From the NCBI RefSeq assembly GCF_000020025.1, contig NC_010628.1, positions 7,260,001-7,292,000 on the forward strand: DNA of 32,000 nucleotides, given 5' to 3'. Under the pieces are notes generated by a model. That model made no database searches, was not told the DNA's origin, and worked only from the letters and a program-made list of their open reading frames with translations. This document shows, in pieces, positions 9,378-25,327 of this stretch; positions within the stretch are counted from its first letter, which is position 1, and the number at the start of each line of letters is the position of its first letter. The position numbers and the translations under genes were made by a program. The DNA comes from Nostoc punctiforme PCC 73102 (GTDB lineage Bacteria > Cyanobacteriota > Cyanobacteriia > Cyanobacteriales > Nostocaceae).

Positions 9378-10325
9378 ATGAAACTGATTTTACCGCTCGA
9401 TCTCGTTGCTGACATTGAGCCTCATCTACCGCCTGATACAGAGATTGTCACAGTAGATGTTGAAGGAAATTTAGATGGGGATGCTACTGATGCTGAAGTT
9501 TATTTTAGTTGGTTTTTAGCCAGAAGTCCGATACTGCATAAAATAATAGCAGCAGCACCTGCACTGCGTTGGCATCATGCACCAAATGCAGGGGTGAATC
9601 ATATCCTCACACCAACTTATTTGGAAAGAGATATTATCCTCACCAATGGGGCCGGAGTGCATGGAATTCCGATCGCAGAATTTGCGATCGCTTATATCCT
9701 AGCTCATGCCAAACACCTGCCAGAATTATATGCTCTACAGGCGGAACGTCACTGGAAAAGAGGCTTTGCTATCCAAGAATTGACAGATGCTACCTTACTA
9801 ATTATCGGTGCCGGTGGTATTGGTCAAGAAATCGCCGCCCGTGCTAAACCCTTCGGCTTAAGAATTATTGGCAGTCGCCGTCATCCCCAAGAGCTACCAA
9901 ATTTTGATAAAGTAGTGGGTGGTGATGAATGGCGAGCGCTCCTGCCAGGAGTTAATTATGTAGTTATTGCAACACCTCTAACTCCAGAAACCAAAGAATT
10001 TATTGATGAATCTGTATTGCGATTGCTCCCAAAACATGCCTACCTAATTAATATTGCTCGCGGTGGCGTAATTGATGAATTGGCTTTAATAAAAGCGCTC
10101 ACAGAAGGTTGGATTGCAGGTGAAGCTTTAGACACAGTTAACTCAGAACCATTACCATCCGAAAGTCCTTTATGGTCACTTCCTAATATCTTTATCACAC
10201 CTCATATTTCTAGCGATTCCCCAAAAATTAAACAGCGTTCAATAGTACTATTTATCGACAATCTGAAGCGTTACCAAGCTGGTCAACCATTACGAAATGT
10301 AGTAGATAAAGAAGCAGGATACTAA
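9378..10325 (+). CDS. D-isomer-specific 2-hydroxyacid dehydrogenase family protein (paralog 1)
   Basis: 315 aa. The Rossmann motif is IIGAGGIGQEIA, followed by GSRRH. Catalytic-triad contexts are NIARGGVID (R), LDTVNSEPLP (E) and ITPHISS (H). Confidence 0.85.
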   Translation: MKLILPLDLVADIEPHLPPDTEIVTVDVEGNLDGDATDAEVYFSWFLARSPILHKIIAAAPALRWHHAPNAGVNHILTPTYLERDIILTNGAGVHGIPIAEFAIAYILAHAKHLPELYALQAERHWKRGFAIQELTDATLLIIGAGGIGQEIAARAKPFGLRIIGSRRHPQELPNFDKVVGGDEWRALLPGVNYVVIATPLTPETKEFIDESVLRLLPKHAYLINIARGGVIDELALIKALTEGWIAGEALDTVNSEPLPSESPLWSLPNIFITPHISSDSPKIKQRSIVLFIDNLKRYQAGQPLRNVVDKEAGY

Positions 10326-10413
10326 ACAATTAAAAATTAAAAATTAAAAATGAAGAGGCGTTACCGATTGGGTTACACAATCCAAAATCCAAAATGGAAT
10401 TAGGGAGTAGCAA

Positions 10414-11364
10414 ATGGTGAAACTGATTTTACCCGATCATCTCATTGCTGATATTGAGCCACACCTACCATCTGATATAGATGTTGTGGAGGTGGATAGT
10501 GAAGGTAATCTTGATGGTGATGTCAGTGATGCAGAAGTTTATGTCAACGGATTTTACCTGAAAACTTCTACTCTTGACAAAGTGCTGACAGCAGCGCCCA
10601 GGCTGCGTTGGCAACAGTCACCGAGTGCTGGCGTGAATCACATCCTTACGCCAAATTTTTTGCAAAAAGATATTATCCTCACTAATGGCGCGGGGGTTCA
10701 TGCGATTCCAATTTCGGAATTTGTACTGGCATTCATGCTCTATCACGCCAAGAATCTGCGGAAATTGCAAACTTTGCAGGATGAACACACCTGGGTAAGA
10801 GGAGTGTTTCTCGAAGAGCTAGCAGACGCGACTTTATTAATTCTCGGCACAGGGAATATAGGTCAAGCGATCGCATCTCGCGCTAAAGCCTTTGGTGTTA
10901 AAGTTTGGGGGAGCCGCCGCCATCCCGAACCCCTACCGAATTTTGATAAAGTAGTGGGTGCTGATGAATGGCGATCGCTCCTACCCGCAGCCGACTATGT
11001 AGTAATTGCCACGCCACTAACCCCAGAAACGAAAGGCTTGATCGATGAAGCCGCCTTACGCTCTATGCGTCAGTCTGCTTACTTAATTAATATTGCTCGT
11101 GGTGCGATCGTCGATGAAACAGCATTGCTCACCGCACTAAGTGAGGGATGGATTGCAGGTGCTGGATTAGATACAGTGGCTACAGAACCTCTACCACCGG
11201 AAAGTCCTTTGTGGTCGTTGCCGAACGCCTTTATCACACCCCATTGTTCAGCCCTGTCACCACGACTGAGAGAGCGCATAGCACAACTGTTTATCGACAA
11301 TCTTAAACGCTACCAAACCGGTCAACCCTTGCGGAATGTCGTAGACAAGAAAGCAGGATACTGA
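10414..11364 (+). CDS. D-isomer-specific 2-hydroxyacid dehydrogenase family protein (paralog 2)
   Basis: 316 aa, colinear with the upstream gene over its full length. By eye, roughly two-thirds of residues are identical. It has the same R/E/H contexts and an almost identical C-terminus (FIDNLKRYQ.GQPLRNVVDK.AGY). Confidence 0.85.
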   Translation: MVKLILPDHLIADIEPHLPSDIDVVEVDSEGNLDGDVSDAEVYVNGFYLKTSTLDKVLTAAPRLRWQQSPSAGVNHILTPNFLQKDIILTNGAGVHAIPISEFVLAFMLYHAKNLRKLQTLQDEHTWVRGVFLEELADATLLILGTGNIGQAIASRAKAFGVKVWGSRRHPEPLPNFDKVVGADEWRSLLPAADYVVIATPLTPETKGLIDEAALRSMRQSAYLINIARGAIVDETALLTALSEGWIAGAGLDTVATEPLPPESPLWSLPNAFITPHCSALSPRLRERIAQLFIDNLKRYQTGQPLRNVVDKKAGY

Positions 11365-11487
11365 TTGGGAATTGGGAATTGGGCATCGAGAAGAGACATA
11401 GGAGACAAGGAAGATGGGGGAGACAAGGGAGAAACTTGAATAATTCTCCCCTTGTCCTCCCTCTCCCCCTGCTCCCCTACCTCTTCG
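11363..11487. repeat. G-rich/C-rich hairpin repeat (dispersed family, copy 2)
   Basis: It starts on the stop codon of the dehydrogenase (tgattgggaattgggaattggg). The core 11382-11480 is nearly identical to 3068-3158. The loop acttgaataa is flanked by ggggagacaagggagaa / ttctccccttgtcctccc. Confidence 0.75.
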
Positions 11488-11566
11488 ATCGCTCTCCGAA
11501 CACAAGAATCAAAAGCAATGCTTAAACCTTAGACTAGGGTTAGGTTTGTGGCTTTATTTTCTAGTA

Positions 11567-11581
11567 TGATAAATATTATCA
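11567..11581. promoter_or_regulatory. Fur-box-like palindrome TGATAAATATTATCA
   Basis: It matches 14 of 15 positions of the 7-1-7 Fur consensus TGATAATnATTATCA as I recall it, and is a perfect 6-3-6 inverted repeat. It overlaps a -10-like TATTAT, lies 330 bp upstream of the NDH-2 gene, and sits in an AT-rich intergenic region. Confidence 0.35.
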
Positions 11582-11910
11582 TCGCTCTATCGTGAAACTC
11601 TTGTGTAGAAAGGATCTCATCCTTTTATCTGAGGAAAGTGACACAAGCTGTTTACGGACGCGCTCGCTTCCGTTATGGATGGGAGAAACAAGCCAAATCC
11701 TCTTTCCTCCTGCCTCCTGCCTTCTGCCTCCTGCCTTGTTTCTTGCAAGAGGGATATCTAGAGAAGCAGTCCAGTAGAAGTAGTGAATACTAACTTTGAA
11801 TACTTTTAGTATTTTTTCAATTGTTCTAAATAAACAGCAACCATTAGCATAATGCTGTTACATCTTTGTTAAGAATAGTTACAAGTTCTTAACACAAGGA
11901 AATATCTCGT

Positions 11911-13257
11911 ATGGTAGTCTCACTTGAAAATAATGCACCACATCGGGTTGTCATTGTTGGTGGTGGCTTTGGTGGACTGTATGCAGCAAAGGCTCTGAAT
12001 GCAGCGAATGTAAATGTTACTCTCATTGATAAACGAAACTTTCACCTATTTCAGCCGCTCTTATATCAAGTTGCCACAGGTACGCTATCACCATCTGATA
12101 TTTCCGCACCATTGCGATCTGTATTCAGCAAAAGCAAGAATACAAAGGTGTTGTTGGGAGAAGTAAATAATATTGATCCAAAAGCGCAACAAGTTATTTT
12201 GGGTGATGAGATAGTACCTTATGATACATTAATTGTTGCCACAGGTGCTAACCATTCCTATTTCGGTAAGGATCACTGGGAAAAAGTTGCTCCTGGCTTG
12301 AAAACTGTGGAAGATGCTATAGAAATGCGTCGCCGAATATTTGGCGCATTTGAAGCAGCAGAAAAAGAAACTGATCCTGAAAAACGTTGTGCTTGGTTGA
12401 GTTTTGTGATTGTGGGGGGTGGCCCGACTGGTGTAGAGTTAGCAGGTGCGATCGCAGAATTGGCATACAAAACTCTCAAAGAAGATTTCCGCAGCATCGA
12501 CACTTCAGAAACGAAAATTTTACTATTACAAGGGGGCCCTCGCATCCTCCCACACATGGTGCCAGAGTTATCGGCATCAGCAGCAGTATCTTTGCAAAAG
12601 TTGGGTGTAGAACTCCACACTCACACCAGAGTGACAAATATTGAAGGTGATGTTGTTACTTTCAAGCAAGACAATGAATTTACAGAAATTGCCTCAAAAA
12701 CTATATTGTGGGCAGCAGGTGTCCAAGGTTCCCCAATGGGGAAAGTCTTAGCAGAAAGTACAGGTGTAGAGTGCGATTACTCTGGGCGTGTAATTGTAGA
12801 ACCTGACTTGTCTATCGAGGGTTATGACAACATTTTCGTAATTGGAGATTTAGCTAACTTCTCCCACCAAGATAGTAAAGTCTTACCTGGTGTTGCACCC
12901 GTAGCTAAACAACAAGGAGAGTATGTAGGTAAACTAATTCAACGACGGCTTAAAGGTAAGACTTTGCCACAATTTCATTACAACGATGTGGGTAGTTTGG
13001 CGATGATTGGGCAAAATTTAGCTGTTGTAGATTTAAGCTTAATCAAACTCACAGGTTTCATTGCTTGGGCATTTTGGCTATTAGTTCACATCTACTTCTT
13101 AATCGAGTTTGACACTAAATTACTAGTAGTATTTCAGTGGGCGTGGAATTATATCACTCGTAATCGTCGCTCTAGATTGATTACAGGTCGGGAAGCTTTT
13201 GTAGAAGCAAAAACTGCTAACAATAGGGTGCAAGAGCCTTCTGGGACAGCTCTGTAA
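11911..13257 (+). CDS. Type 2 NADH dehydrogenase (NDH-2) / FAD-dependent pyridine nucleotide-disulfide oxidoreductase family
   Basis: 448 aa. It has two dinucleotide-binding motifs (VVIVGGGFGGLYAAKAL and FVIVGGGPTGVELAG), the motif GDLA, and a C-terminal hydrophobic membrane-association segment. Confidence 0.85.
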   Translation: MVVSLENNAPHRVVIVGGGFGGLYAAKALNAANVNVTLIDKRNFHLFQPLLYQVATGTLSPSDISAPLRSVFSKSKNTKVLLGEVNNIDPKAQQVILGDEIVPYDTLIVATGANHSYFGKDHWEKVAPGLKTVEDAIEMRRRIFGAFEAAEKETDPEKRCAWLSFVIVGGGPTGVELAGAIAELAYKTLKEDFRSIDTSETKILLLQGGPRILPHMVPELSASAAVSLQKLGVELHTHTRVTNIEGDVVTFKQDNEFTEIASKTILWAAGVQGSPMGKVLAESTGVECDYSGRVIVEPDLSIEGYDNIFVIGDLANFSHQDSKVLPGVAPVAKQQGEYVGKLIQRRLKGKTLPQFHYNDVGSLAMIGQNLAVVDLSLIKLTGFIAWAFWLLVHIYFLIEFDTKLLVVFQWAWNYITRNRRSRLITGREAFVEAKTANNRVQEPSGTAL

Positions 13258-13554
13258 CTTCGGGTATCACAGCATTTGCCGACTGGTAGAATTGTTAAAG
13301 CGGACGAGAGGACGAGAGTACCAAACATCTACCAGATTGGTAAAGTCTGCCAAATTATAGCTAAGGAAAACCCCAAATTTAGGGGCAAGGATGGGTGTTG
13401 GCATAGCCTCTTCAAGAACTATGCGTTTTGTCAACTACTTCTACTCGACTAGCGCTGTAGCAGAGGTTCTGAGGTAGAAATATTTATCAACTAAATCAAT
13501 GTTATCGCTGATAACCTGATATAGCATTTCCTAATCACATGAGGTACATCATAG

Positions 13555-13582
13555 CCCCCTCCCCGCGTAAGCGAGGAGGGGG
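13555..13582. repeat. Small dispersed hairpin repeat with a GNRA-type loop (ccccctcc-c-cgc GTAA gcg-a-ggaggggg)
   Basis: The inverted repeat was read directly from the sequence. The overlapping 66-aa track ORF is probably an artefact. Confidence 0.55.
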
Positions 13583-13931
13583 TTGGGGTTCTAAGGGTCG
13601 AGAACCGCTATAAGACTTTTTATGACTAAACAATACAAAGTACTTGGAATTGACTTTTAAACACCTAACTATAGAAGTCTTTTTCATGCTGTGTTTATTG
13701 AAGAAACAGCTTAATTTAGATTCATGGTTAAACAACAGGTTCTGAACACGGCTTGCACAAAACCAAACAACTAAGGCTCTATTGAAAATAAGAAATAATA
13801 TTTATTTTCATCAAACTCTAAGCCGCTACATTCCAGTAAATGTAGGTTCAAATAGAAAGTTCACATCTGTGCAAACCACAACTTAATCTCAACTTGACCA
13901 GATCACAATCAACACCCAAAGGACAAAAAAA

Positions 13932-14693
13932 ATGACACTTTACAATCTTGGTACATTAGGTAGCACCCCTGTTGTCAAAAATAACTTTGATTTAAATGCA
14001 TCTGAACCCACGGATGTCTTTCAGTTCAAAATCACCAGTGGCAAAAACATCAACCTGTCTCTGACAGACATCAGCGCTGGCGATGATGCCGACATCCAGC
14101 TGTTTAAGGACGCTAACCTTAACGGTGTATTGGACGACTTCGACCGAAAAGTTGGACTTGTTTCCAATCAAGCAAGCAACCATGATGACGCGATTAACTT
14201 TAAAACTAGCTCAGGTACTTTTTTTGCCGAAGTATCTCGCTTTGCTCCAGGTAGTTCAGGCAATGTCAGTTACGATTTAGCCTTGTCTGCGACTGAACCG
14301 TCTGGAACTGTTCCCCTTTCAGCCAGTTTCAGCAACCTTCTACCGAGAGAATTTATAGTTGGTAACCTGTCACATGATGTCACTCGTACAGGTTCCATAG
14401 ATAACCGCAACACTACTGATGTTTACAGCTTCACTTTGGGAACCTTTGAGGGTGTCAACATTAAATTGAACGGATTAAGCAGCGATGCTGACATCCGGCT
14501 GATTCGAGACTTTAACAACAATCGCATCGTTGACGCCGGAGAGGAAATTGCACACTCTACTAATGGAGGTATTAACTCAGAGCTTATTTCCAACTTTACC
14601 ACCGCTGGTAACTACTTCTTACAGGTCACTGAATTCAATGGTGCCACTAATTACAACCTGACTTTTGACCAGTTCACCACCCCCTTTGCTTAA
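13932..14693 (+). CDS. Secretion-candidate protein with two PPC (pre-peptidase C-terminal)-like beta-sandwich modules
   Basis: 253 aa. There are two internal repeats (TDVFQFKI...DDADIQLFKD... and TDVYSFTL...SDADIRLIRD...) that match the D.Y.F...DADL.L pattern I associate with PPC domains. There is no signal peptide, no Cys and no Trp, and about 30 acidic against about 15 basic residues by my count. Confidence 0.65.
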   Translation: MTLYNLGTLGSTPVVKNNFDLNASEPTDVFQFKITSGKNINLSLTDISAGDDADIQLFKDANLNGVLDDFDRKVGLVSNQASNHDDAINFKTSSGTFFAEVSRFAPGSSGNVSYDLALSATEPSGTVPLSASFSNLLPREFIVGNLSHDVTRTGSIDNRNTTDVYSFTLGTFEGVNIKLNGLSSDADIRLIRDFNNNRIVDAGEEIAHSTNGGINSELISNFTTAGNYFLQVTEFNGATNYNLTFDQFTTPFA

Positions 14694-14764
14694 CTTTAGG
14701 CATTGGCAGTGATGAGTAGTACTTGAAAGTTTTGTACGGCAATGCTTTCAAGGGTATGCAAATG

Positions 14765-14807
14765 ATGCAAGCGGTACAAATCCATACCTGAACTTTACCG
14801 CTTGCAT
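14765..14807 (+). terminator. Hairpin with a perfect 12-bp stem (atgcaagcggta / taccgcttgcat), a 19-nt loop and a T-rich tail
   Basis: The inverted repeat was read directly from the sequence and is followed by ttctaaattt. It lies between the PPC-protein gene and the parvulin-like gene. Confidence 0.5.
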
Positions 14808-14848
14808 TTCTAAATTTATCTCTGCACGGCGCAAATATTTACACAAAT

Positions 14849-15649
14849 ATGAATAAAACATTACAACTAGGCGATGTCTACGACGGGCGTAGCGGCAGCG
14901 CCATCTTACCGCCAGAAATTATCCCCTTTTTAGCTAGTTACAATCTAATCCCGCAATTGTTATCTCAGAGCATTATCGAGTCTGCGATCGCACCAATCAC
15001 CTGTACACCAGCTGAAACATCTCATGCTCTAGAACAATTTTATCAGCAGTGGGATTTAAACAGTGAAGAAAAAATTCAATCTTGGTGCTTACGTTACGGT
15101 TTAACTCAAGAACAATTAGAACTTTTTGCAACCCGAAAGCTCAGAGTCGAAAAGTTTAAGCAAATAACTTGGGGACATCAACTAGAATCTTACTTCCTTA
15201 AATACAAAAGACATTTTGATAAAGTAATTTATTCTTTAATTCGGACTGATAACAGAGGAACTGCTAACGAGCTATATTTCCGAATTACAGAAGGGGAACA
15301 GTCATTTGCTGAGTTGGCGCATGAATATTCTCAAGGCCCTGAAGCTGAGACAAGTGGCATCATCGGCCCAGTGGAAGTTGGTACAATCACCCCAAATTTT
15401 GCTCAGTTACTTTGCACAAGTCAAGTGGGTATAGTTCAAGCACCTGTAGCCTTTGGAGAATCATGGGTGATTGTCCGGGTGGAAAAGTTTATAACTGCAC
15501 AGTTAGACAATTTTATGCGCCAACGATTGCTGCAAGAGAATTTTGAAACTTGGTTTCAACAGCAACTAAGTCAACTTTCGGCAGAAGAGAAAACCTGGAT
15601 GGGAATCAACACAAAACCAGCACAGGTTCAACAAGCCATCGCTGCATAG
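14849..15649 (+). CDS. Parvulin-like (PpiC-type) peptidyl-prolyl isomerase family protein, probably non-catalytic
   Basis: 266 aa with no signal peptide. Residues about 124-213 align by eye to E. coli Par10 (SFAELAHEYSQGPEAETSGIIGPV against [24 protein letters not shown]). Both signature His positions are substituted. Confidence 0.65.
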   Translation: MNKTLQLGDVYDGRSGSAILPPEIIPFLASYNLIPQLLSQSIIESAIAPITCTPAETSHALEQFYQQWDLNSEEKIQSWCLRYGLTQEQLELFATRKLRVEKFKQITWGHQLESYFLKYKRHFDKVIYSLIRTDNRGTANELYFRITEGEQSFAELAHEYSQGPEAETSGIIGPVEVGTITPNFAQLLCTSQVGIVQAPVAFGESWVIVRVEKFITAQLDNFMRQRLLQENFETWFQQQLSQLSAEEKTWMGINTKPAQVQQAIAA

Positions 15650-15665
15650 AACTTATTAAAATAGG

Positions 15666-18620
15666 GTGTCGAAAATGATGACAAATACAACCGTTGATAT
15701 TCAAGAATTTATTGCTGATTTGTTTCCTTTCAATTATCTGTCACCAAATGTTTTAGAAAATTTGCTCAACAAAGTGCAATTTTGTCGCTATCGCATCGGG
15801 CAAGTAATAGTAGCACGGGAAGCTATGCCCGATCGGATTAGTATTATCTACCAGGGACAAGCGCGTTTATTAGCCTACAATTCCCAAGGACAAAATCCGG
15901 CGACACTGAAGTTGCTCTCATCAGGTGAGGTTTTGGGTTGGGTAAGTCATGTGCGGGGGATTGCTTGTGAAACTGCGATCGCTTCTACTGAAGTTATCAC
16001 CTTTAATCTGGCGATCGCTGATTTTCTCGCATTGATTCAACAGGAGAAGGCTTTTGCCGAAGCATTACATAATACTGCTTCCCTCATAGAAGTATATGAA
16101 CTGCTGATGGAAGAACTGAATCGTCGGGCAGATGGTAGCAGGAATTTAGTTAAGCTTGCTCGCACAGCAACTCAAGCAGCCGTTATTCAAACATTCCCAA
16201 CACGTAAAATATCTCTCCAGCAGTTAGATTCAGAATTATTGTGGTTAGTTAGCAGTAGTTCGAGTGCTTACTTTCCTGTAGGGAGTCGCTTAAAGTTAGA
16301 TGATATCAACCCCAAGCTGAAATTTAACGCAAGTATGCGTCTGGTGGGCTTACCTAAATCAATACTTGGAGAAAATCTTGCTCCTCCTACGTCAAAAACA
16401 CTGTTACCCGCAGAGATTCCCTACGCTTCAGAAATTACTGTCACAGAAGAACCAGCAGCTAAGGGTAAACAAAAGAAGTTTCCTTATATCAAAGGTAGAG
16501 GACCACTAGATGGTTCATTAGCTTGCTTCCAAATGTTGAGCCAATACTTTAACATCTCCTGGCGCAAAGATACACTACGCCGGGTGTTGACAAAGCAGCA
16601 AGAACAGAAGGGCACTATATCTCTGCAATTTTGCGCCGCCGCCGCTGAGTTGATGGGGTTGACAACACAGATGGTTAAAGTTCCCGCTACCGCAGTCGGA
16701 CGCTTGCAGTTACCAGTAATGATTTCTTGGCAAGATAGTTTTGCCATCATCTACAAAAATAGCGATCGAGAGTTACTCATTGCTGTTCCAGAGATGGGAC
16801 TACTGCGCTACAAATTACGAGACTTTGCGGAAAACTGGGGGGCTGAAGGAGAAGTTCTGCTGCTACAAACCACCAAAAATACTCCCAAGGCGCGGTTTAG
16901 TTTAAGTTGGTTTGTACCTTCACTGCGACGCTACCGCAAAGTATTAATTGAAGTACTAATTGCTTCCATTGTTATCCAACTGTTTGGGCTGGTAAATCCT
17001 CTGGCTACACAGGTGATTATTGATAAAGTATTGGTTGGCAATAGTCCTGATACCCTGGAAGTTTTCGGCATCTTTTTGCTGGTAGTTGCAGTCATCGAAG
17101 CAATACTTACCAGCGTTCGCACTCATTTATTTACAGATACCACCAACCGGATTGACCTCACCCTTGGTTCTGAGGTGATTAATCACTTGTTGCGTTTGCC
17201 TTTATCTTACTTTGAACGCCGCCCTGTGGGGGAATTGGCAACGCGAATCCACGAATTAGAAAACATCCGCTCTTTTTTAACTGGTACCGCTTTAACTGTA
17301 GTGATGGATGCTGTGTTTTCGGTGGTCTACATCGTAGTAATGGCGATTTACAGCCCAGTGTTGACATTAGTTGCTTTGGCAACAGTACCGCTATTTGGCT
17401 TGCTCAACTTGATGGTATCACCTTTGATGCGGCGACAATTGCAAGAGAAAGCTGAGTGCAATGCCGAGACGCAATCTTATTTAGTGGAAGTCATGGGGGG
17501 AATGCAGACAATCAAGGCGCAAAATTTAGAAATGCGATCGCGTTGGCAATGGCAAGAACGCTATGCTCGTTACATCAGCGCTGGTTTCAAAACAGTCTCT
17601 ACCCAAACTACCGCCAGTTCTATTAGCAGTTTTCTCAACAAGTTTTCCAGCATGTTAGTACTGTGGGTGGGAGCTTTTCTCGTCCTAAATCAGCACCTTA
17701 CCTTGGGACAACTCATCGCCTTTCGCATTCTTGCTGGTTATGTCACCAGTCCCTTGTTACGCCTGATGCAACTTTGGCAGAACTTCCAAGAAACCGCTCT
17801 ATCTCTGCAACGCCTTGCTGATATTTTAGACACTCCCCAAGAAACAGAAATCGGCAACTCTCAAAATATTCTCATGCCCAGTATTCAAGGTAGTGTCCGC
17901 TTTGAAAATCTCAGCTTCAGTTTCTCGGAAAACGGACCGATGCAACTGTGCAATATTAACTTAGACTTTCCGGCTGGCTCCTTTGTGGGAATTGTTGGTC
18001 AAAGCGGTTCCGGTAAAAGCACTCTGCTAAAATTGTTGCCTCGGCTTTATGAACCAAAGTCCGGCAAAATCTTGATTGATGGCTATGATATCAGCAAAGT
18101 AGAACTTTATTCTTTACGTCGTCAAATTGGTATGGTGTTACAAGATACCCTCTTGTTTGATGGCACAATTCGCGAAAACATTTCCTTGGGATATCCTGAT
18201 GCTAGCGATGAAGAAATTATTACTGCTGCCAAGGTAGCATTCGCCCACGACTTTATTATGTCTTTACCCAGTGGCTATAACACCCGCGTCGGCGAACGAG
18301 GTTCGGGACTGTCTGGGGGACAACGCCAAAGAGTCGCGATCGCTCGTACTGTTCTGCAAAATCCCCAATTACTGATTCTTGATGAAGCAACCAGTGCCTT
18401 AGATTACAATGCCGAAGCCCAAGTTTGCGGTAACTTAGCGAGAACTTTCCAAGATAAAACAGTATTTTTCATTACTCACCGCCTCAGCACAATTCGCAAT
18501 GCCGATGTAATTCTCATGATGGATCGAGGCGCTGTAGTAGAACAGGGAACTCATGAAGAATTGATGGCGCTCAAAGGTTATTACTACTGTCTGTATCAGC
18601 AACAGGAAGCGAAAGTGTAG
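15666..18620 (+). CDS. Type I secretion-type ABC exporter: N-terminal cNMP-binding-like domain, degenerate C39 peptidase-like domain, 6-TM domain and NBD
   Basis: 984 aa. The cNMP-like fold covers residues about 15-130. The C39-like region, about 272-402, aligns to CvaB (GSLACFQMLSQYF against CGLACLAMICGHF). The NBD has [30 protein letters not shown] and ITHRL. The start is either GTG 15666 or ATG 15675. Confidence 0.9.
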   Translation: MSKMMTNTTVDIQEFIADLFPFNYLSPNVLENLLNKVQFCRYRIGQVIVAREAMPDRISIIYQGQARLLAYNSQGQNPATLKLLSSGEVLGWVSHVRGIACETAIASTEVITFNLAIADFLALIQQEKAFAEALHNTASLIEVYELLMEELNRRADGSRNLVKLARTATQAAVIQTFPTRKISLQQLDSELLWLVSSSSSAYFPVGSRLKLDDINPKLKFNASMRLVGLPKSILGENLAPPTSKTLLPAEIPYASEITVTEEPAAKGKQKKFPYIKGRGPLDGSLACFQMLSQYFNISWRKDTLRRVLTKQQEQKGTISLQFCAAAAELMGLTTQMVKVPATAVGRLQLPVMISWQDSFAIIYKNSDRELLIAVPEMGLLRYKLRDFAENWGAEGEVLLLQTTKNTPKARFSLSWFVPSLRRYRKVLIEVLIASIVIQLFGLVNPLATQVIIDKVLVGNSPDTLEVFGIFLLVVAVIEAILTSVRTHLFTDTTNRIDLTLGSEVINHLLRLPLSYFERRPVGELATRIHELENIRSFLTGTALTVVMDAVFSVVYIVVMAIYSPVLTLVALATVPLFGLLNLMVSPLMRRQLQEKAECNAETQSYLVEVMGGMQTIKAQNLEMRSRWQWQERYARYISAGFKTVSTQTTASSISSFLNKFSSMLVLWVGAFLVLNQHLTLGQLIAFRILAGYVTSPLLRLMQLWQNFQETALSLQRLADILDTPQETEIGNSQNILMPSIQGSVRFENLSFSFSENGPMQLCNINLDFPAGSFVGIVGQSGSGKSTLLKLLPRLYEPKSGKILIDGYDISKVELYSLRRQIGMVLQDTLLFDGTIRENISLGYPDASDEEIITAAKVAFAHDFIMSLPSGYNTRVGERGSGLSGGQRQRVAIARTVLQNPQLLILDEATSALDYNAEAQVCGNLARTFQDKTVFFITHRLSTIRNADVILMMDRGAVVEQGTHEELMALKGYYYCLYQQQEAKV

Positions 18621-18632
18621 GCAGGAGGGAAG

Positions 18633-18660
18633 AGGCAACAGGCAACAGGCAATAGGCAGG
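18633..18660. repeat. STRR-like heptamer run (AGGCAAC x4, degenerate)
   Basis: aggcaac aggcaac aggcaat aggcagg, immediately after the ABC stop codon. Confidence 0.7.
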
Positions 18661-18675
18661 AATAAATACTATTGC

Positions 18676-18927
18676 TTCGACCTTTGAACTCGGAACTTCG
18701 ACCTTTGAACTTGGAAGTTGAGCCTTTTTGCTTGAAGGTTGAGCCTCTGAACTCGGAAGTTGCACCTTTTTACTTGAACGTTGAGCCTCTGAACTCGGAA
18801 ATTGAGCCTTTTTGCTCGAACGTTAAGCCTCTGAACTCGGAAGTTGCACCTTTTTGCTTGAACGTTGAGCCTTTGAACTCGGAAATTGCACCTTTTTGCT
18901 TGAACGTTGAGCTTCTCAACTAAGAAC
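18676..18927. repeat. Tandem array of 12 x 21 nt with alternating A/B units (42-nt superunit)
   Basis: The unit boundaries were mapped by hand. A-type units read ttgagcctctgaactcggaag and B-type units read ttgcacctttttgcttgaacg. Frames are open on both strands only because the period is 21 nt (7 codons). Confidence 0.9.
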
Positions 18928-18956
18928 TTTAACCTTAGCACTCCTAACTCTTGTAC

Positions 18957-18976
18957 AGACGCGATTCATCGCGTCT
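18957..18976. repeat. Dispersed hairpin repeat agacgcga-ttca-tcgcgtct
   Basis: An 8-bp perfect stem read directly from the sequence. From memory, this motif is common in Nostoc and Anabaena intergenic DNA. Confidence 0.6.
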
Positions 18977-18985
18977 CTCAACACT

Positions 18986-19020
18986 CCCCAATGCCCAATG
19001 TCCCATTCCCCATTCCCCCA
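18986..19020. repeat. C-rich heptamer run (CCCCAAT-like x5)
   Basis: ccccaat gcccaat gtcccat tccccat tccccca, ending 6 nt before the likely HlyD start. It is the complement of the gggaatt motif that begins the hairpin-repeat family. Confidence 0.65.
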
Positions 19021-19026
19021 TTTATT

Positions 19027-20529
19027 ATGAATATTCAATATAAATTCGATCAACCAGTTCTTTTACAACAAACCCCTACTTGGTCACGAGCGATCGCCTG
19101 GACTATTATCGGAGTTAGCACCTTCACAGTAATTTGGGCTTCAGTCTTCCAAATTGATGAATCAATTCATGCTACTGGCAAGTTAGAACCACAGGGTGCA
19201 GTCAAAGAAATTCAGGCTCCGGTTCATGGTGTTGTCAACGAAATTCTAGTCAAAGATGGTCAGCGAGTCAAAAAAGGTGAAACACTCATTACCCTAGAAA
19301 AAACTTCTTCTGAGGCGGAGTTAACTTCATTAAAGCAAAGTCGCGCGGCTCAGTTGCTTGCAAAACAGTCGCTAGAGCAAGAAAATGACTTCTATCGCCG
19401 TCAGCTTCAAGGGAGCATATCACTACAACAAGTGGCACAGCAAACTGCTCTGTTGAAAATTAAACCAGAACTAGCCTTTTTGACCAAAAGCCGAGCAGCG
19501 ATTATTGCCGAAAACCAGTTGTACCGGACACAATTAAACGGTGCGACTGCTGAAAGTCCTCTTACAAGAGAGCAACAGTTACGCTTGCGAAATCGCCAAA
19601 TAGAATTAGAATCACGTTTAGCCACAGCTAATTTAGAAACGGGACAGACACAACAGCAATTTTTCCAGACTCAGGCACAGTTAACTAGCGCTAAAGAGTT
19701 GCTGACAATTAATCAACAAATTCTTCGCAGGTTTGAACCTCTAGCACAGCAGGGGGCGATTTCCCAGGTGCAGTACTTGAAACAGCAACAGGATGTCAGC
19801 ACCAAACAAGCAGAAGTGATCCGATTGAATCGGGAACAGCAGCGATTACAATTAGCGATCGCACAGTCAAATGAAAAACTTCGCAATACTGCGGCTGTGT
19901 CTCAAGAAGACTTATTAGCCAAAATTACAGATAATGACAAAAAAATTGCCGAAATTGACAGCCAATTAACCAAAGTAATTGTAGATAATCAGAAACGCCT
20001 CTATGAAATTAATGGTCAGATTGGTGAGATTGAGAGTAAGTTAATCCAGGCACAACAAACTCTTAAATATCAGAAAATTACTGCACCTGTAGATGGTACT
20101 GTTTTTGAACTTAAAGCTAAAACAGCAGGATTTGTAATTAATTCTAGCGAACCGCTCCTAAAACTTGTTCCGAGTGATAATTTGGTTGCTAACGTATACA
20201 TCACTAACCGCGACATCGGTTTTGTCAGAGAAAGGCAACAAGTGGATGTAAGAATTGATTCCTTTCCCTTCCAAGAGTATGGTGACATCAAAGGCGAACT
20301 AATTGAGATTGGCTCTGATGCTTTACCTCCAGACCAAGTTTATAAATTCTGGCGTTTTTCCGCAAAAGTCCGCCTACATGGGCAGAAATTACTGATTAAT
20401 CAGCGTCAAATTCCATTGCAATCCGGGATGTCCATTGATGCTAATGTGAAATTGCGTCAGCGCACCATTATGAGTATCTTCACTGATTTCTTAGTTCAGA
20501 AGACTGAAAGCTTAAAATCTCTCCGTTGA
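19027..20529 (+). CDS. HlyD-family type I secretion membrane-fusion (periplasmic adaptor) protein
   Basis: It has an N-terminal TM segment (AIAWTIIGVSTFTVIWASVF), a lipoyl-like segment (GVVNEILVKDGQRVKKGETLITL), a long Q-rich coiled coil and a beta-barrel C-terminus. The track ORF begins at 18907 inside the repeats. ATG 19027 (MNIQYKF) is the plausible start. Confidence 0.85.
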   Translation: MNIQYKFDQPVLLQQTPTWSRAIAWTIIGVSTFTVIWASVFQIDESIHATGKLEPQGAVKEIQAPVHGVVNEILVKDGQRVKKGETLITLEKTSSEAELTSLKQSRAAQLLAKQSLEQENDFYRRQLQGSISLQQVAQQTALLKIKPELAFLTKSRAAIIAENQLYRTQLNGATAESPLTREQQLRLRNRQIELESRLATANLETGQTQQQFFQTQAQLTSAKELLTINQQILRRFEPLAQQGAISQVQYLKQQQDVSTKQAEVIRLNREQQRLQLAIAQSNEKLRNTAAVSQEDLLAKITDNDKKIAEIDSQLTKVIVDNQKRLYEINGQIGEIESKLIQAQQTLKYQKITAPVDGTVFELKAKTAGFVINSSEPLLKLVPSDNLVANVYITNRDIGFVRERQQVDVRIDSFPFQEYGDIKGELIEIGSDALPPDQVYKFWRFSAKVRLHGQKLLINQRQIPLQSGMSIDANVKLRQRTIMSIFTDFLVQKTESLKSLR

Positions 20530-20573
20530 ACAAAGTCCTCAACCTTGTACTGTTACTTCAAAAACATTATTAC

Positions 20574-21860
20574 TCAGGAATCAATATCAATACAAATCAC
20601 TGTAACGTATGGATTAATTACTGATTCAGGTATATCAATTGTTAATTCTCCTAATGGATTGGGATTAAGAATAGAATCTATAATTGCACAGCGACTTGTG
20701 TAGGTTAGTGCTGTGCTATCAGCAAGAACAAATACTGATTTTACCCGTTTGATTGGTATACCCCTAACTGATATTGTTTCGTAAGGTTTCATTAATAGGT
20801 GTAGATAAATGCGATCGCCTCCGGCACGCGAAGCGCGAACGCCCTTACGAGTTGAGGGGCCATAAAATTGCCACGGTTCTAACCCTGGGGTTGTATCAAG
20901 TATACTTTCACTGTGGCTCTCCATCCAATCTGCTATATCTTTGAGACGCTCTAACTGCTCAGGAGGGATTTGTCCATTACCCATTGGGCTAACATTGAGC
21001 AAAAGATTGCCTCCTTTGCCTGCTACTTCGCAAAGGGTATGAATTAGCTGACGAGATGACTTGAAGCAATGATCGTCTGAATTATATCCCCAACTTTCAT
21101 TAATAGTCAGACAAGTTTCCCAAGGATGATCGGGTGGATGAGGCGGAATAAACTGTTCAGGAGTTTCAAAGTCTCCACAATTTGGAAGACGATCGTTAAT
21201 GAGAATATTCGGTTGTAAATCACGAATCATTTTTGCTAAATTTTGAGCCTGCCATTGCTCTGGAGTGCGTTCCCAACTTCCGTCAAACCAAATGATGTCA
21301 ATTTGACCATAGTTGGTCAATAATTCTCGGATCTGATTGAACATAAATTGGATATATCGCTCCCACTGTTGCGCTGTAGGTTGAGGTAGCTGGTCAAAGC
21401 GATAAGGTTTAGCTGCTTCTGTAAAAGCCGGATAGTCTGGATGATGCCAGTCACTAAGCGAAAAATAAAGACCAATACGCAATCCGACAGAGCGCATCGC
21501 TTCGATATATTCACGTACAATATCTTTTTTGTAAGGTGCAGATGCAATTGAAAAGTCTGATTCTTGGGTATGGAATAGGGCAAAACCATTATGATGCTTG
21601 GCTGTTAATATGGCATATTTCATTCCGAGACTTTTTGCTAAATGTGCCCATTCTTGAGGATTGTATTGCTGTGGATTGAAAGTATTAGCTGTGTAGTGAT
21701 ATCTCTCAACTGGAATATCTTTGCAAAAAGGAAGGCTGAATACACCCCCAACTAACGGCCAAGATAACTCACATCCTTGTTGAGAACTATGTCCCCAATG
21801 AATAAACATCCCCAATCGAGCTGTATCAAACCAGTTATTCATCATGGTGAAATTTGGCAA
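20574..21860 (-). CDS. Alpha-L-fucosidase (GH29)
   Basis: 428 aa. GH29 hallmarks are FDTARLGMFIHWG and YAILTAKHHNGFALFHT. No signal peptide is visible. An alternative start is at 21845. Confidence 0.85.
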   Translation of the reverse strand: MPNFTMMNNWFDTARLGMFIHWGHSSQQGCELSWPLVGGVFSLPFCKDIPVERYHYTANTFNPQQYNPQEWAHLAKSLGMKYAILTAKHHNGFALFHTQESDFSIASAPYKKDIVREYIEAMRSVGLRIGLYFSLSDWHHPDYPAFTEAAKPYRFDQLPQPTAQQWERYIQFMFNQIRELLTNYGQIDIIWFDGSWERTPEQWQAQNLAKMIRDLQPNILINDRLPNCGDFETPEQFIPPHPPDHPWETCLTINESWGYNSDDHCFKSSRQLIHTLCEVAGKGGNLLLNVSPMGNGQIPPEQLERLKDIADWMESHSESILDTTPGLEPWQFYGPSTRKGVRASRAGGDRIYLHLLMKPYETISVRGIPIKRVKSVFVLADSTALTYTSRCAIIDSILNPNPLGELTIDIPESVINPYVTVICIDIDS

Positions 21861-22304: not shown

Positions 22305-23747
22305 ATGAATATAGAAGAAGCATTAGTAATTCTAGATACATTTATTGAACATGGCTTAAGTGATGTTCAGGAAATAATATTTCGTCAGGCTTGGGAAGGA
22401 AAAACTTATCCAGATATCGCCGAAAGCTGTGGTTATGATGCAAATTATATAAAAGATGTTGGTTCTAAGTTATGGAAGTTACTTTCACAAGCTTTTGGGG
22501 AGGAGGTGACAAAAAGTAATTTTCGCTCAGTATTGAGGCGGCGAAGCCTCCGGCAGGCTTTGCCTACGCAAAATAGCGTTTTGTCAGAAAAACTACAAAC
22601 TGTGCCAGCAGTCTTGAGACAGTCTCAGCAAACAAGCACAGGGAAAGATAGGATATCAGCATCTTCTTTAGCGATCGAAAAGCAAGACGAGAGAAAAACC
22701 CCAGTCCTTAATTCCGACTTCTTAGAAATTCCTGGTGGCTCGGTGCCGCTCAATTCCTTTTTTTACATAGAGCGTCCGCCAATTGAAGAACGCACATATA
22801 CAGAAATTAATAAACCTGGAAGCCTAATCAGAATCAAAGCCCCCAGCAAAATGGGAAAAACCTCCCTAATGCACAGAATTCTTACTCATGCTAAACAGAC
22901 TAGGGTACACACCGTACAGATCGGTTTACAGAGGGCAGATAGTCAAGTTTTCACCAGCTTGGAAAAATTCTTACGCTGGTTTTGTGCTAACGTCAGTCGG
23001 CAGTTGAACCTAGAAATCAGACTAGATGATTATTGGGATGAAGATATTGGTAGCAAAGTTAGCTGCACATTGTATTTACAAGAGTATTTGCTAGAGAAAA
23101 TCGACGCTCCGGTAGTCTTAGCTTTGGATGAAGTGAATCGAATTTTCGAGTATCCAGAAATCTCTAGGGATTTTCTGCCGCTACTGCGTTCTTGGTATGA
23201 AGATGCTTCCGAATTAGAAATCTGGCGAAAACTCCGATTACTAGTTGTCCATGCCACTGAAGCTTATATTCCGTTAGATATTAATCAATCCCCTTTTAAT
23301 GTGGGACTACCGATTAAGTTACCAGAATTTAGTTTAGAGCAGATGCAGGAATTAGCAGTGCGTCATGGACTCGATTGGGCTAAAGGTGAGAAAGGATTGG
23401 AAAAGCTGGCTCCTCTACTAGCGATGATTGGTGGACATCCCTATCTAGCTCGTCTGGCTCTTTATAACCTGGGACATGAAGAAGTAACTCTAGAGCAACT
23501 ACTAAACGAGGCTCCCACAATTGCCGGTATCTATAGCAACTATTTACGGCAGCATCTAGCCAATCTCCAAGAACATCCAGAATTAGCAACAGCACTCAAA
23601 CGGGTAGTTACCTCTCCAACAAGCGTGCAATTAGAAGCGATCGCTGCCTACAAATTAGAAAGTATGGGTCTGGTAAAACTTGAAGGAAATCAAGCAATAC
23701 CTAGCTGTGAGTTGTATCGGCTCTATTTCCAAGAGCATTTAGGCTAA
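22305..23747 (+). CDS. HTH-containing AAA-like (STAND/ORC-like) NTPase
   Basis: 480 aa. An N-terminal module of about 80 aa (LSDVQEIIFRQAWEGKTYPDIAESCGYDANYIKDVGSKLWKLLSQAFGEEV) resembles a sigma-70 region 4 or LuxR-type HTH. It is followed by a low-complexity linker, Walker A (APSKMGKT), Walker B (VVLALDE) and a C-terminal wHTH-like segment (MGLVKLEGNQAIPSCELYRLYF). Confidence 0.75.
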   Translation: MNIEEALVILDTFIEHGLSDVQEIIFRQAWEGKTYPDIAESCGYDANYIKDVGSKLWKLLSQAFGEEVTKSNFRSVLRRRSLRQALPTQNSVLSEKLQTVPAVLRQSQQTSTGKDRISASSLAIEKQDERKTPVLNSDFLEIPGGSVPLNSFFYIERPPIEERTYTEINKPGSLIRIKAPSKMGKTSLMHRILTHAKQTRVHTVQIGLQRADSQVFTSLEKFLRWFCANVSRQLNLEIRLDDYWDEDIGSKVSCTLYLQEYLLEKIDAPVVLALDEVNRIFEYPEISRDFLPLLRSWYEDASELEIWRKLRLLVVHATEAYIPLDINQSPFNVGLPIKLPEFSLEQMQELAVRHGLDWAKGEKGLEKLAPLLAMIGGHPYLARLALYNLGHEEVTLEQLLNEAPTIAGIYSNYLRQHLANLQEHPELATALKRVVTSPTSVQLEAIAAYKLESMGLVKLEGNQAIPSCELYRLYFQEHLG

Positions 23748-23752
23748 ATGCA

Positions 23753-25327
23753 ATGAATAAATACGAATATCAAATTGGCGGTAGTCTTAAAGTCGATGCT
23801 CCTAGCTATGTAGAACGACAGGCTGATATTGAACTTTATAATGCTCTCATCCAAGGTGAATTTTGTTATGTATTTAGTTCCCGACAGATGGGTAAATCTA
23901 GCTTGCGTTTACAAACAAGACACCGATTAGAACAAGCCGGCTACAGTTGCGCTTCTATCGATATGACTCGGATCGGCAACGGCAATATTACTCCTGCTCA
24001 ATGGTATAAGGGCATAGTGGTTGACTTATTAAGGAGCTTTAATATATTTGGCAAAGTTAATTTAAAAACCTGGTGGTCGGAGCGAGAAGATTTACCTGCG
24101 TTACAGCGATTGAGCCAATTTGTCGAAGATATTTTGTTAGTTGAAATAAAAGCTGAAAAAATATTTATTTTTATTGATGAAATTGATAGTGTTTTAGGTT
24201 TGAATTTCCCTGTCGTCGATTTTTTTACTCTAATTCGCTCGTGCTACAATCAGCGAGCAGAAAATCCAGAATATAACCGTCTAACTTGGGCACTATTCGG
24301 AGTGGCAACGCCTTCAGATTTGATTGCCGATCGCAACTGTACTCCATTTAATATCGGTAAATCTATTGAACTACACGGTTTTAACTTCTCAGAAGTTCAG
24401 CCATTAACAGCAGGGTTAGAAGGTAAAGTCGCTAATCCTATGGCAGTTATCAAAGACATTTTGGCTTGGACAAATGGTCAACCTTTTCTGACTCAAAAGC
24501 TCTGTCAGATAGTAGTGCAAGAAAGAAACTCTGGAAGCAAAAATGTTGAAGAGCAGAGAAGTATAGAAGTTGACGAGCGTTATAAATTGGATGACCATTT
24601 ACCGATTGTTAATCAACATCTGATAAATTTTTATTATCAATTTCCATTGTTAGTTTTAGAAAAACTCGTGCAAACCCATATTATAGAGAAATGGGAAGCA
24701 AAGGACGATCCTGAGCATTTGAAAACAATCCGCGATCGCTTGCTGAGAAATGAACAGCGTGCTGGAGGCTTACTGGGAATGTACCAGCAAATTTTGCAAG
24801 GAATTCAGATAGCTTGTGATGAGGGAGAGGAGCAAATAGAACTGCTGTTATCGGGATTAGTAACCAAGCAGCAAGGGCAACTAATAGTCAAGAACCGCAT
24901 TTATGAAGAGGTTTTTAATCAAACTTGGGTAGAAAAACAATTAGCAAAGTTGCGACCCTATTCGCAAGCATTAAATGCTTGGATAGCCTCAGAACACTGT
25001 GATAATTCTCGACTATTACGCGGGAAAGCTTTACTTGAAGCTCTAGCTTGGTCACAAGGCAAAAGCTTGAGCGATCTAGATTATCAGTTTTTAGCAGCTA
25101 GCCAAGAATGCGATCGGCGAGAAGTTGAGACATGGTTAGAAGCTGAACGAACTAAAGAAGTTAAAGCTAGATTAGTTCAAGAGCAAAAAGCAGCTAGATT
25201 CCAAAGATTATTTTTTATCGGCGCATTCAGTTGGGCATTGATAGTTGTTTTAGGATTAGGGGTAGTGACTTTCCAGTATAAAAAGCACTGTTCCGTTACC
25301 TCAAAGCAATTACTAGATCAACCTTGA
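23753..25327 (+). CDS. AAA-like (STAND/ORC-like) NTPase with a C-terminal coiled coil and a single TM anchor
   Basis: 524 aa. The opening YQIGGSL..DAPSYVERQAD.EL, Walker A (SSRQMGKS) and Walker B (IFIFIDEID) match my recollection of the Pfam AAA-like (AAA_35) family. It also has a wHTH-like segment (GLVTKQQGQLIVKNRIYEEVF), a LLRGKALLEALAWS...LDYQFLAAS linker and a TM segment (LFFIGAFSWALIVVLGLGVVTF). It starts 5 nt after the upstream stop codon. Confidence 0.75.
   Translation: MNKYEYQIGGSLKVDAPSYVERQADIELYNALIQGEFCYVFSSRQMGKSSLRLQTRHRLEQAGYSCASIDMTRIGNGNITPAQWYKGIVVDLLRSFNIFGKVNLKTWWSEREDLPALQRLSQFVEDILLVEIKAEKIFIFIDEIDSVLGLNFPVVDFFTLIRSCYNQRAENPEYNRLTWALFGVATPSDLIADRNCTPFNIGKSIELHGFNFSEVQPLTAGLEGKVANPMAVIKDILAWTNGQPFLTQKLCQIVVQERNSGSKNVEEQRSIEVDERYKLDDHLPIVNQHLINFYYQFPLLVLEKLVQTHIIEKWEAKDDPEHLKTIRDRLLRNEQRAGGLLGMYQQILQGIQIACDEGEEQIELLLSGLVTKQQGQLIVKNRIYEEVFNQTWVEKQLAKLRPYSQALNAWIASEHCDNSRLLRGKALLEALAWSQGKSLSDLDYQFLAASQECDRREVETWLEAERTKEVKARLVQEQKAARFQRLFFIGAFSWALIVVLGLGVVTFQYKKHCSVTSKQLLDQP

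Follow-up and report, generated by a model that had tools for sequence, protein, structure and literature searches.

A putative type I secretion module in Nostoc punctiforme with a tandem-PPC candidate cargo and a non-catalytic parvulin-like protein

Nostoc punctiforme PCC 73102 carries four consecutive plus-strand genes that encode a 253-amino acid (aa) protein with tandem PPC domains, a 266-aa parvulin-like protein, a 984-aa ATP-binding cassette (ABC) exporter, and a HlyD-family adaptor. The genes occupy positions 13932-20529 of a 32,000-nucleotide (nt) stretch of the genome (NC_010628.1, positions 7,260,001 to 7,292,000), referred to here as the window. The genes and domains present, the lost catalytic residues, the conserved gene order, and the relationship to a characterized type I system make it reasonably probable that they form a type I secretion module. 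In this model, the tandem-PPC protein is exported uncleaved, the catalytically dead parvulin acts as a cargo-linked holdase or targeting factor, a C39-like domain of the exporter provides a docking site, TolC is supplied in trans, and calcium drives folding outside the cell. An earlier sequence-only reading of the window had anticipated much of this architecture. It described a coherent same-strand unit with an acidic, Cys-free candidate cargo without a signal peptide, a cytoplasmic parvulin-like protein, an ABC protein with two extra N-terminal domains, a HlyD adaptor, and two apparently inactivated catalytic folds, and the present analysis bears these points out. Its statements on ligand gating, self-containment, kinship to HetC, and the novelty of the parvulin partner need revision, as described below.

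The ABC protein belongs to the HlyB type of secretion exporters and not to a non-secretory family. It scores 770 bits on the NCBIfam model TIGR01846 (HlyB type I secretion; cutoff 725.55) and falls under the cutoffs of the bacteriocin ABC models. Its top sequence match in the PDB is HlyB (7sgr, E 1.5e-175). Pfam assigns ABC_membrane (183 bits) and ABC_tran (122 bits) domains, preceded by cNMP_binding and Peptidase_C39 domains. The product of the last gene passes TIGR01843 (228 bits, cutoff 208.65), also matches HlyD_3 and Biotin_lipoyl_2, and has one N-terminal transmembrane helix at approximately aa 23-41, as judged by hydropathy. The E. coli haemolysin system HlyB/HlyD/TolC, the paradigm of an exporter with a C39-like domain, shares with the window locus the match to the HlyB model, the best solved homologue, a non-catalytic C39-like domain, and an HlyD adaptor. 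However, the window locus has an additional cNMP-like domain and a parvulin-like gene, and it lacks RTX repeats in the cargo and an HlyC gene.

The C39-like domain of HlyB binds only unfolded substrate and is essential (PMC6363468). In the window exporter, the entire peptidase triad of this domain is replaced. Relative to PCAT1, Cys21 corresponds to Gly283, His99 to Ser358, and Asp115 to Val374. Among 55 parvulin-linked orthologues, the Cys is absent from all (Ala, Gly, Ser, Glu, or Val is found instead), the His is kept once, and the Asp is never kept. The census was extended by searching the N-terminal 420 residues of the ABC protein against 1.84 billion cluster representatives, approximately 75 of which were scored at all three positions. 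The full Cys/His/Asp triad was found in two representatives, and the Cys was kept in three. One full-triad representative (1045 aa), which is 27% identical in the N-terminal region, is probably HetC-like based on its length, triad, and domain position. Because the triad is replaced in the window protein, its orthologues, and nearly all of the scored family representatives, the domain is C39-like in the HlyB sense and is not a peptidase.

A representative of the exporter family shares a sequence cluster with the Synechocystis PCC 6803 "HlyB family" protein BAA18265.1 (1011 aa). The gene neighborhood of BAA18265.1 consists of a carbamoyltransferase, rpoC1, the ABC protein, HlyD, and a Rieske protein, and we take the protein to be Sll1180 from the sll1178-sll1182 gene order. 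The window exporter is 56% identical to Sll1180 over its full length, which further supports the assignment to type I secretion. Both proteins have the order cNMP-like, C39-like, membrane, and ATPase domains, and the Sll1180 triad is also degenerate (Ala/Ser/Val). In both genomes, the HlyD gene (sll1181 in Synechocystis) directly follows the ABC gene. The Synechocystis TolC gene is at a separate site, as is presumed for that of the window system, and approximately 8 kb upstream of sll1180 there is a gene of the OEP family. The S-layer protein Sll1951 is presumably of the RTX or haemolysin-like kind. According to the summary of Agarwal 2018 given in PMC11594277, Sll1180, Sll1181, and the TolC homologue Slr1270 together export this S-layer protein. 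In contrast to the window locus, no parvulin or cargo gene adjoins sll1180, and the known substrate is large, unlike the small tandem-PPC protein. PteB/EbfG was also considered as the closest characterized system and was rejected, since an active Cys is required there.

Of the window proteins, the 253-aa one is the strongest candidate for the cargo, in agreement with the dedicated cargo of the sequence-only reading; this choice is based on 49 closely related loci, 45 of which have a PPC gene upstream of the parvulin gene. The protein has an isoelectric point (pI) of 4.36, contains no Cys, and matches PPC (PF04151) in two stretches (59 bits, cutoff 25.9). Its AlphaFold2 (AF2) model consists of two beta-sandwiches, with a predicted local distance difference test score (pLDDT) of 89 and a predicted template modeling score (pTM) of 0.87. 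The top fold match in the PDB is the calcium-bound tandem collagen-binding domains s3a-s3b of the clostridial collagenase ColG (5iku, E 7e-15), and the fold also matches the PPC domain from B. anthracis. In the family alignment, a DxNxNGxxD loop (D60-D68) is invariant and the C-terminal tail, ...TFDxFTTPFA, is conserved. The maximum hydropathy is 0.71 in 19-aa Kyte-Doolittle windows, and thus the protein has no hydrophobic segment.

Neither a signal peptide nor a double-glycine leader is present in the candidate cargo. A hidden signal peptide is impossible in this protein and in the parvulin because both open reading frames (ORFs) start at the first possible start codon. The N-terminus of the cargo corresponds to the fold and not to a leader, since the same residues open each internal repeat in three-domain relatives. 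Taken together, the acidic composition, the absence of Cys and of a signal peptide, and the predicted extracellular-type calcium-binding fold are hallmarks of type I substrates. The PPC fold is an extracellular calcium-binding module, and the protein carries no Sec or Tat signal; type I secretion would therefore be the simplest route.

The 266-aa protein matches Rotamase (PF00639) with 46 bits (cutoff 21.7) and has weak matches to TIGR04500 and NifM. Its helical N-domain is followed by a parvulin domain and then by a C-terminal helix, which aligns with the C-terminal helix of SurA. The best fold matches of its AF2 model (pLDDT 85.5) are PrsA (6vj6, 4wo7) and SurA (1m5y), and over the whole protein the matches are the chaperones PrsA, SurA, and PEB4. 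The parvulin domain superposes on SurA P2 (template modeling score 0.80) and on Pin1. However, alignment to SurA P2 reveals that the catalytic residues are gone: Gly163 stands at the Asp/Cys position, Leu130 replaces the first His, and Val (in the segment SWVIV) replaces the second. Gly163 is invariant across the family alignment. Foldase chemistry is unlikely because every catalytic residue is lost. The parvulin also lacks the signal peptide or lipobox expected of the extracytoplasmic SurA and PrsA chaperones, and its maximum hydropathy of 1.32 (same windows) reflects the absence of a hydrophobic N-terminal segment.

The protein therefore resembles PrsA, SurA, and NifM in architecture, and it differs from them in lacking a signal peptide, lipobox, and catalytic residues and in its linkage to type I secretion genes. 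Based on the alignment and the model, it looks like a non-catalytic chaperone of the PrsA/SurA type, in line with the chaperone role suggested earlier, and a function as cargo holdase or targeting chaperone is proposed. SurA itself has a non-catalytic parvulin domain, P1, and NifM serves a specific client in the cytoplasm. Textbooks usually present type I secretion as a process that needs no chaperone, except for the case of SecB and HasA. SecB is required to keep HasA export-competent (PMC8277102). The HasA/HasDE system with SecB thus offers a precedent for a cytoplasmic anti-folding factor that acts on a non-RTX type I substrate. However, SecB is general and encoded elsewhere, and HasD has no N-terminal domain, whereas the helper in the window is a cargo-adjacent pseudo-parvulin.

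The conservation of the locus was assessed by an alignment scan for the parvulin with one genome per species. The scan gave 80 loci, with which the four window proteins were then compared by tblastn. Close loci were defined as those that have upstream sequence and a parvulin at least 57.5% identical to that of the window (n = 49). Upstream of the parvulin gene, 45 of these contain one to four PPC genes, often two to four in tandem, nearly always with one directly adjacent. They are from Nostoc, Scytonema, Tolypothrix, Calothrix, Iningainema, Halotia, a Coleofasciculaceae bin, and Dapis. ABC and HlyD genes follow the parvulin in 51 of the 66 loci with at least 8 kb of downstream sequence, and in 34 of 42 PPC-positive loci. 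A search with the cargo returned 172 proteins; those with a named source are cyanobacterial, mostly from Nostoc, and several paralogues are often found on one contig. The nearest relatives are mostly uncultured Nostoc metagenome bins, and in the closest of them three PPC genes are followed by the parvulin, ABC, and HlyD genes. Judging from this synteny, the four genes are more than a chance neighborhood.

In eight of the 42 loci, the PPC-parvulin pair lacks an exporter within 10 kb. For example, contig 8 of Nostoc paludosum FACHB-159 (locus L019) encodes three PPC proteins and the parvulin without ABC and HlyD. In their place (10001-12000 of the locus) is a minus-strand ORF that appears methyltransferase-like by eye, followed by the same pair of AAA_35 genes that lies downstream in the window. 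Contig 7 of the same genome (L026) contains a complete four-gene set. In three other loci, an RTX protein is encoded directly upstream of the parvulin (L025, 9005-9523, 172 aa; L046, 7817-9625, 602 aa; L070, 8759-9763, 334 aa). The C-termini of these proteins (...DFILA, ...DLVFV, or ...DITIV) consist of an Asp followed by hydrophobic residues. ABC and HlyD genes were not found in the downstream sequence of L025 and L070 (10 kb each) or of L046 (1.7 kb only). Six additional loci also have genes for RTX proteins, which are the classic type I substrates, just upstream of the PPC gene. The tightest link inside the conserved unit, as read from gene order, is that of the cargo with the parvulin. The survival of cargo-parvulin pairs without ABC and HlyD links the parvulin with its cargo and not with the pump.

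The genome of Nostoc linckia NIES-25 has three parvulin loci with PPC genes (L024, L028, and L040). Two of them, L024 and L028, are on plasmid1, a 1.78-Mb replicon annotated as a plasmid, and one of the two has upstream RTX genes. The third, L040, is chromosomal and lacks exporter genes.

Several observations weigh against the proposed module. The 253-aa protein contains none of the GGxGxD RTX repeats that usually accompany exporters carrying a C39-like domain. No experimental secretion of any PPC family member was found in the literature, in searches that did not target exoproteome data directly. When the parvulin is less than 57.5% identical, a PPC gene is present in only 3 of 27 loci (Symplocastrum, Microseira, and one uncultured-cyanobacterium bin), and the distant parvulin-ABC-HlyD trios have no PPC gene nearby. 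Three-domain PPC homologues (approximately 365-371 aa) also stand alone outside the Nostocales, in a metagenome and in Capilliphycus (L084, 8001-9116; L085, 8001-9098), with no parvulin, ABC, or HlyD gene within 8 kb. The parvulin is no general requirement for export, because the Sll1180/Sll1181 pair functions without an adjacent parvulin gene. A domain search found no TolC or OEP domain in any window ORF of at least 120 aa, as the earlier reading had noted. That reading called the locus self-contained; the four-gene unit stands, but with the missing TolC, the standalone cargo homologues, and the cargo-parvulin pairs without an exporter it is not fully so. Scans of 13200-20700 for sigma-70 promoters and intrinsic terminators gave counts that did not differ from those of shuffled sequences. 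Lastly, in the alignment of the cNMP-like domain with the PKG CNB-B domain, Trp92 and Glu102 take the place of the canonical Glu and Arg of the phosphate-binding cassette. Because these canonical contact residues have changed, gating by a nucleotide is unproven.

The cNMP-like fold itself is well supported, with 33.8 bits on PF00027 (cutoff 27.5) in addition to the alignment with PKG. The cassette segment, G(E/A)VLGWV..VRG..CETAIAS, is almost invariant across the 55 orthologues, which makes a conserved pocket likely, and a canonical cyclic nucleotide is not the obvious ligand. Of the "ligand-gated" exporter described by the sequence-only reading, the domain is therefore retained and the gating is kept as a hypothesis. 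The sole precedent is HetC of Nostoc PCC 7120, whose cNMP-like domain is essential and binds ppGpp (Kd 59 uM) but not cAMP (PMC10986499). HetC likewise fuses a cNMP-like domain to a C39-type domain and an ABC exporter. However, HetC is a distant relative that is proteolytically active, with Cys347 and His420 intact, and it lacks an adaptor gene beside its own. The HetC-like kinship suggested earlier is thus superseded by the closer relationship to Sll1180/Sll1181.

An alternative is that ABC and HlyD form a general exporter with RTX or S-layer substrates encoded elsewhere, and that the PPC-parvulin pair is a separate adjacent unit whose product is cytoplasmic or exported by another route. The eight cargo-parvulin pairs without an exporter, the trios without a PPC gene in distant cyanobacteria, the standalone PPC homologues, and the reported distant substrate of Sll1180/Sll1181 all speak for such a separation. 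However, the one-strand order of cargo, parvulin, ABC, and HlyD is kept in 34 of 42 loci, and the parvulin and ABC genes are merely 16 nt apart in the window, a gap compatible with translational coupling. Across cyanobacteria, the parvulin is linked to the exporter family in 51 of 66 loci, and RTX proteins occupy the same parvulin-adjacent position as the PPC protein. An extracellular-type PPC fold without a Sec or Tat signal also favors type I secretion as the simplest export route. Overall, this separation is unlikely, although it is the leading alternative to the favored model.

Instead of a cargo chaperone, the parvulin could be a factor that assembles or regulates the exporter, or it could itself be secreted as a second product and serve as a PrsA-like foldase outside the cell. 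PrsA, SurA, and PEB4, to which it is related in fold, act outside the cytoplasm, it resembles type I substrates in having no signal peptide, and its gene is 16 nt from the ABC gene. However, the parvulin gene stays beside cargo genes where exporter genes are absent, which argues against a role centered on the pump. Unlike type I substrates, the protein is neither acidic nor rich in repeats (pI 5.14, 3 Cys), the loss of catalytic residues makes foldase chemistry improbable, and the parvulin-like NifM, a weak sequence relative, is cytoplasmic. Either role is improbable, more so than the separation of the two gene pairs.

The parvulin-ABC-HlyD trio is an already catalogued architecture, although the sequence-only reading knew of no described role for the parvulin partner. 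In 2011, Wang, Fewer and Sivonen divided cyanobacterial "bacteriocin" clusters into seven groups, and groups I, II, and VI contain a "long" ABC protein with an extra CAP_ED domain, a rotamase called SurA or SurA-like, and HlyD (PMC3140520). Group I clusters were the commonest, numbering 57 and occurring in 42 of the 43 strains that had any cluster, out of 58 genomes surveyed (PMC3140520). The grouping was reused by Micallef et al. in 2015 (PMC4558948). The gene content of the window trio matches the group I definition exactly (PMC3140520; PMC4558948), and tools of the antiSMASH type would agree. On that reading, which follows the published assumption of an active C39 peptidase and of double-glycine precursors, the C39 domain cuts the leader from a small precursor peptide, the rotamase modifies or folds the peptide, and ABC/HlyD exports it, which would make the PPC protein a bystander. 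The related active-C39 exporters PteB/EbfG and HetC do process peptides.

However, the window locus has neither an active peptidase nor a double-glycine precursor, and the PPC protein, or an RTX protein in some loci, takes the precursor position. Among ORFs of at least 20 aa in the 675-nt spacer upstream of the cargo gene (searched at 13258-13931), none has a double-glycine leader. Wang et al. themselves predicted 0.35 precursors per group I cluster (PMC3140520). The group I interpretation rested on an assumed double-glycine specificity of C39, to which the sequence of this clade gives no support. With the Cys, His, and Asp all replaced, no Cys in any of the 55 orthologues, a cargo N-terminus that is the first PPC strand, and an ABC protein that passes the HlyB model and fails the bacteriocin models, a bacteriocin cluster is a very remote prospect and the label misfits the locus.

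The favored type I export of the tandem-PPC protein can be outlined as follows. The cargo would be made in the cytoplasm without a leader. Low cytoplasmic calcium, together with the dead parvulin as holdase or targeting factor, would keep it unfolded. The non-proteolytic C39-like domain and the ABC/HlyD complex would then capture the cargo, which would be threaded, probably C-terminus first and uncleaved, through ABC-HlyD and a TolC-type channel encoded elsewhere. Outside the cell, calcium binding would fold it into a binding module that resembles the collagen-binding domains of ColG. Through the N-terminal cNMP-like domain, export is probably coupled to a small-molecule signal, and conserved hairpins that follow the cargo gene probably determine how much cargo transcript is made relative to machinery transcript.

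The hairpins are located in the 155-nt spacer between the cargo and parvulin genes. This spacer has a minimum free energy of -47.7 kcal/mol, compared to -32.2 +/- 3.2 for shuffled sequences (z -4.79). The element begins a short distance past the cargo stop codon. Hairpin 1 (approximately 14722-14752) forms a perfect palindrome in the DNA, TTGAAAG(N)..CTTTCAA. Hairpin 2 (approximately 14765-14807) is followed by a T-rich tract. Across 20 loci that extend from Nostoc to Scytonema, Tolypothrix, and Iningainema and have parvulins as little as 70% identical, both hairpins are kept. In the alignment of these loci, changes on both sides that keep the pair occur at 3 of 18 pairs, in 6, 7, and 1 sequences. 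An Rfam search of 13000-20700 gave no match. The hairpins may be a terminator or attenuator, a transcript-stabilizing element, or an operator; the last is equally possible for hairpin 1 because it is a perfect DNA palindrome. The preferred reading is an attenuator, with which cargo mRNA would be plentiful and machinery mRNA scarcer. The terminator between hlyA and hlyB is a similar case of a structured element, terminator-like in the window, that separates the cargo gene from those of the machinery.

A bolder proposal, put forward tentatively, is that cyanobacteria have cargo-specific cytoplasmic dead parvulins, one for each cargo family (tandem-PPC proteins and certain RTX proteins), which hand unfolded cargo to a shared HlyB-type exporter. 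The cNMP-like domain of this exporter would gate export in response to a signal other than a cyclic nucleotide, such as ppGpp. If so, type I secretion would use a chaperone-plus-effector logic as in type III secretion, which is undescribed for type I, and the commonest type of cyanobacterial "bacteriocin cluster" would be misassigned.

Several aspects of the locus appear undescribed so far. These are the family-wide loss of the triad in a class that had already been catalogued, the cargo family with tandem PPC domains, the association of cargo and pseudo-parvulin, which endures where the pump is missing and is also seen for RTX cargo, and the conserved inter-cistronic hairpins. Searches of the accessible literature for type I secretion-associated parvulins, secreted Nostoc PPC proteins, and cNMP-HlyB exporters returned nothing relevant. 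Genome-mining pipelines and the two published surveys rank this architecture as the most abundant cyanobacterial bacteriocin cluster. If the peptidase is dead family-wide and the neighbors are PPC or RTX proteins, counts of peptide natural products are inflated and a widespread protein-export system is hidden. A dedicated, cargo-adjacent helper would extend the mechanism of type I secretion. The tandem-PPC proteins, like calcium-dependent collagen-binding modules, could be matrix, sheath, or host-binding factors in Nostoc, and the module could serve for engineered protein secretion from cyanobacteria.

Table 1. Features of the putative secretion locus (window coordinates)
Feature	Position	Strand	Description and basis
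Candidate cargo	13932..14693	+	253 aa, tandem PPC; Pfam PPC, AF2 model, synteny
Two-hairpin element	14722..14807	+	Cargo-parvulin spacer; RNA folding against shuffles, 20-locus conservation
Pseudo-parvulin	14849..15649	+	266 aa, PrsA/SurA/NifM-like architecture; Rotamase PF00639, AF2 fold matches
HlyB-type type I secretion ABC exporter	15666..18620	+	984 aa; Pfam and NCBIfam
ABC sub-domain, cNMP-like	aa 41-126, nt 15786-16043	+	Pfam
ABC sub-domain, C39-like, without triad	aa 274-403, nt 16485-16874	+	Pfam
ABC transmembrane domain	aa 427-697, nt 16944-17756	+	Pfam
ABC ATPase domain	aa 763-910, nt 17952-18395	+	Pfam
42-nt tandem repeat array	18681..18921		ABC-HlyD spacer; Tandem Repeats Finder (TRF)
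HlyD-family membrane-fusion adaptor	19027..20529	+	500 aa from ATG; TIGR01843, HlyD_3, Biotin_lipoyl_2

The HlyD start is more likely the ATG at 19027 than a TTG at 18907. The 500-aa product of the ATG aligns from residue 1 in most loci by tblastn, and the gene call in a relative (L001) is also 500 aa. The repeat array in the 406-nt ABC-HlyD spacer overlaps the TTG-started extension by 15 nt (18907-18921), which is given as context and not as a basis for the start. The array has approximately 5.2 copies of the 42-nt unit, itself made of two related 21-nt halves (TRF score 335, 87% matches), and the unit is absent elsewhere in the window. It is flanked by 7-nt repeats, AGGCAAC and CCCCATT, at 18633-18658 and 18987-19018. 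The predicted structure of the ABC-HlyD spacer is not unusual (z -0.94), and the size of this gap varies widely among related loci.

The unit ends at HlyD because the next gene downstream, for an alpha-L-fucosidase, is convergent. On the other side, an NDH-2 gene precedes the 675-nt upstream spacer. The NDH-2 gene was considered as part of the module and rejected, since it is conserved in no related locus. Two adjacent genes for AAA_35 (AAA-like) proteins downstream (22305-23747 and 23753-25327) were likewise considered and rejected, since they are syntenic in close Nostoc only and absent from the Scytonema, Tolypothrix, and Calothrix loci. The conserved unit thus consists of the cargo or cargos, parvulin, ABC, and HlyD. 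In the gene calls of a close relative, the first AAA_35 protein has an HTH_VMAP-M9 domain. The upstream spacer contains a G/C-rich inverted repeat at 13553-13590, CCCCCTCCCCGCG..CGAGGAGGGGG, then TTGGGGTTC, which resembles a small repeat element or hairpin. The standalone PPC gene of Capilliphycus has SLH/OprB porin genes on both sides, and an SLH/OprB porin gene is also found in the window at 3231-5144.

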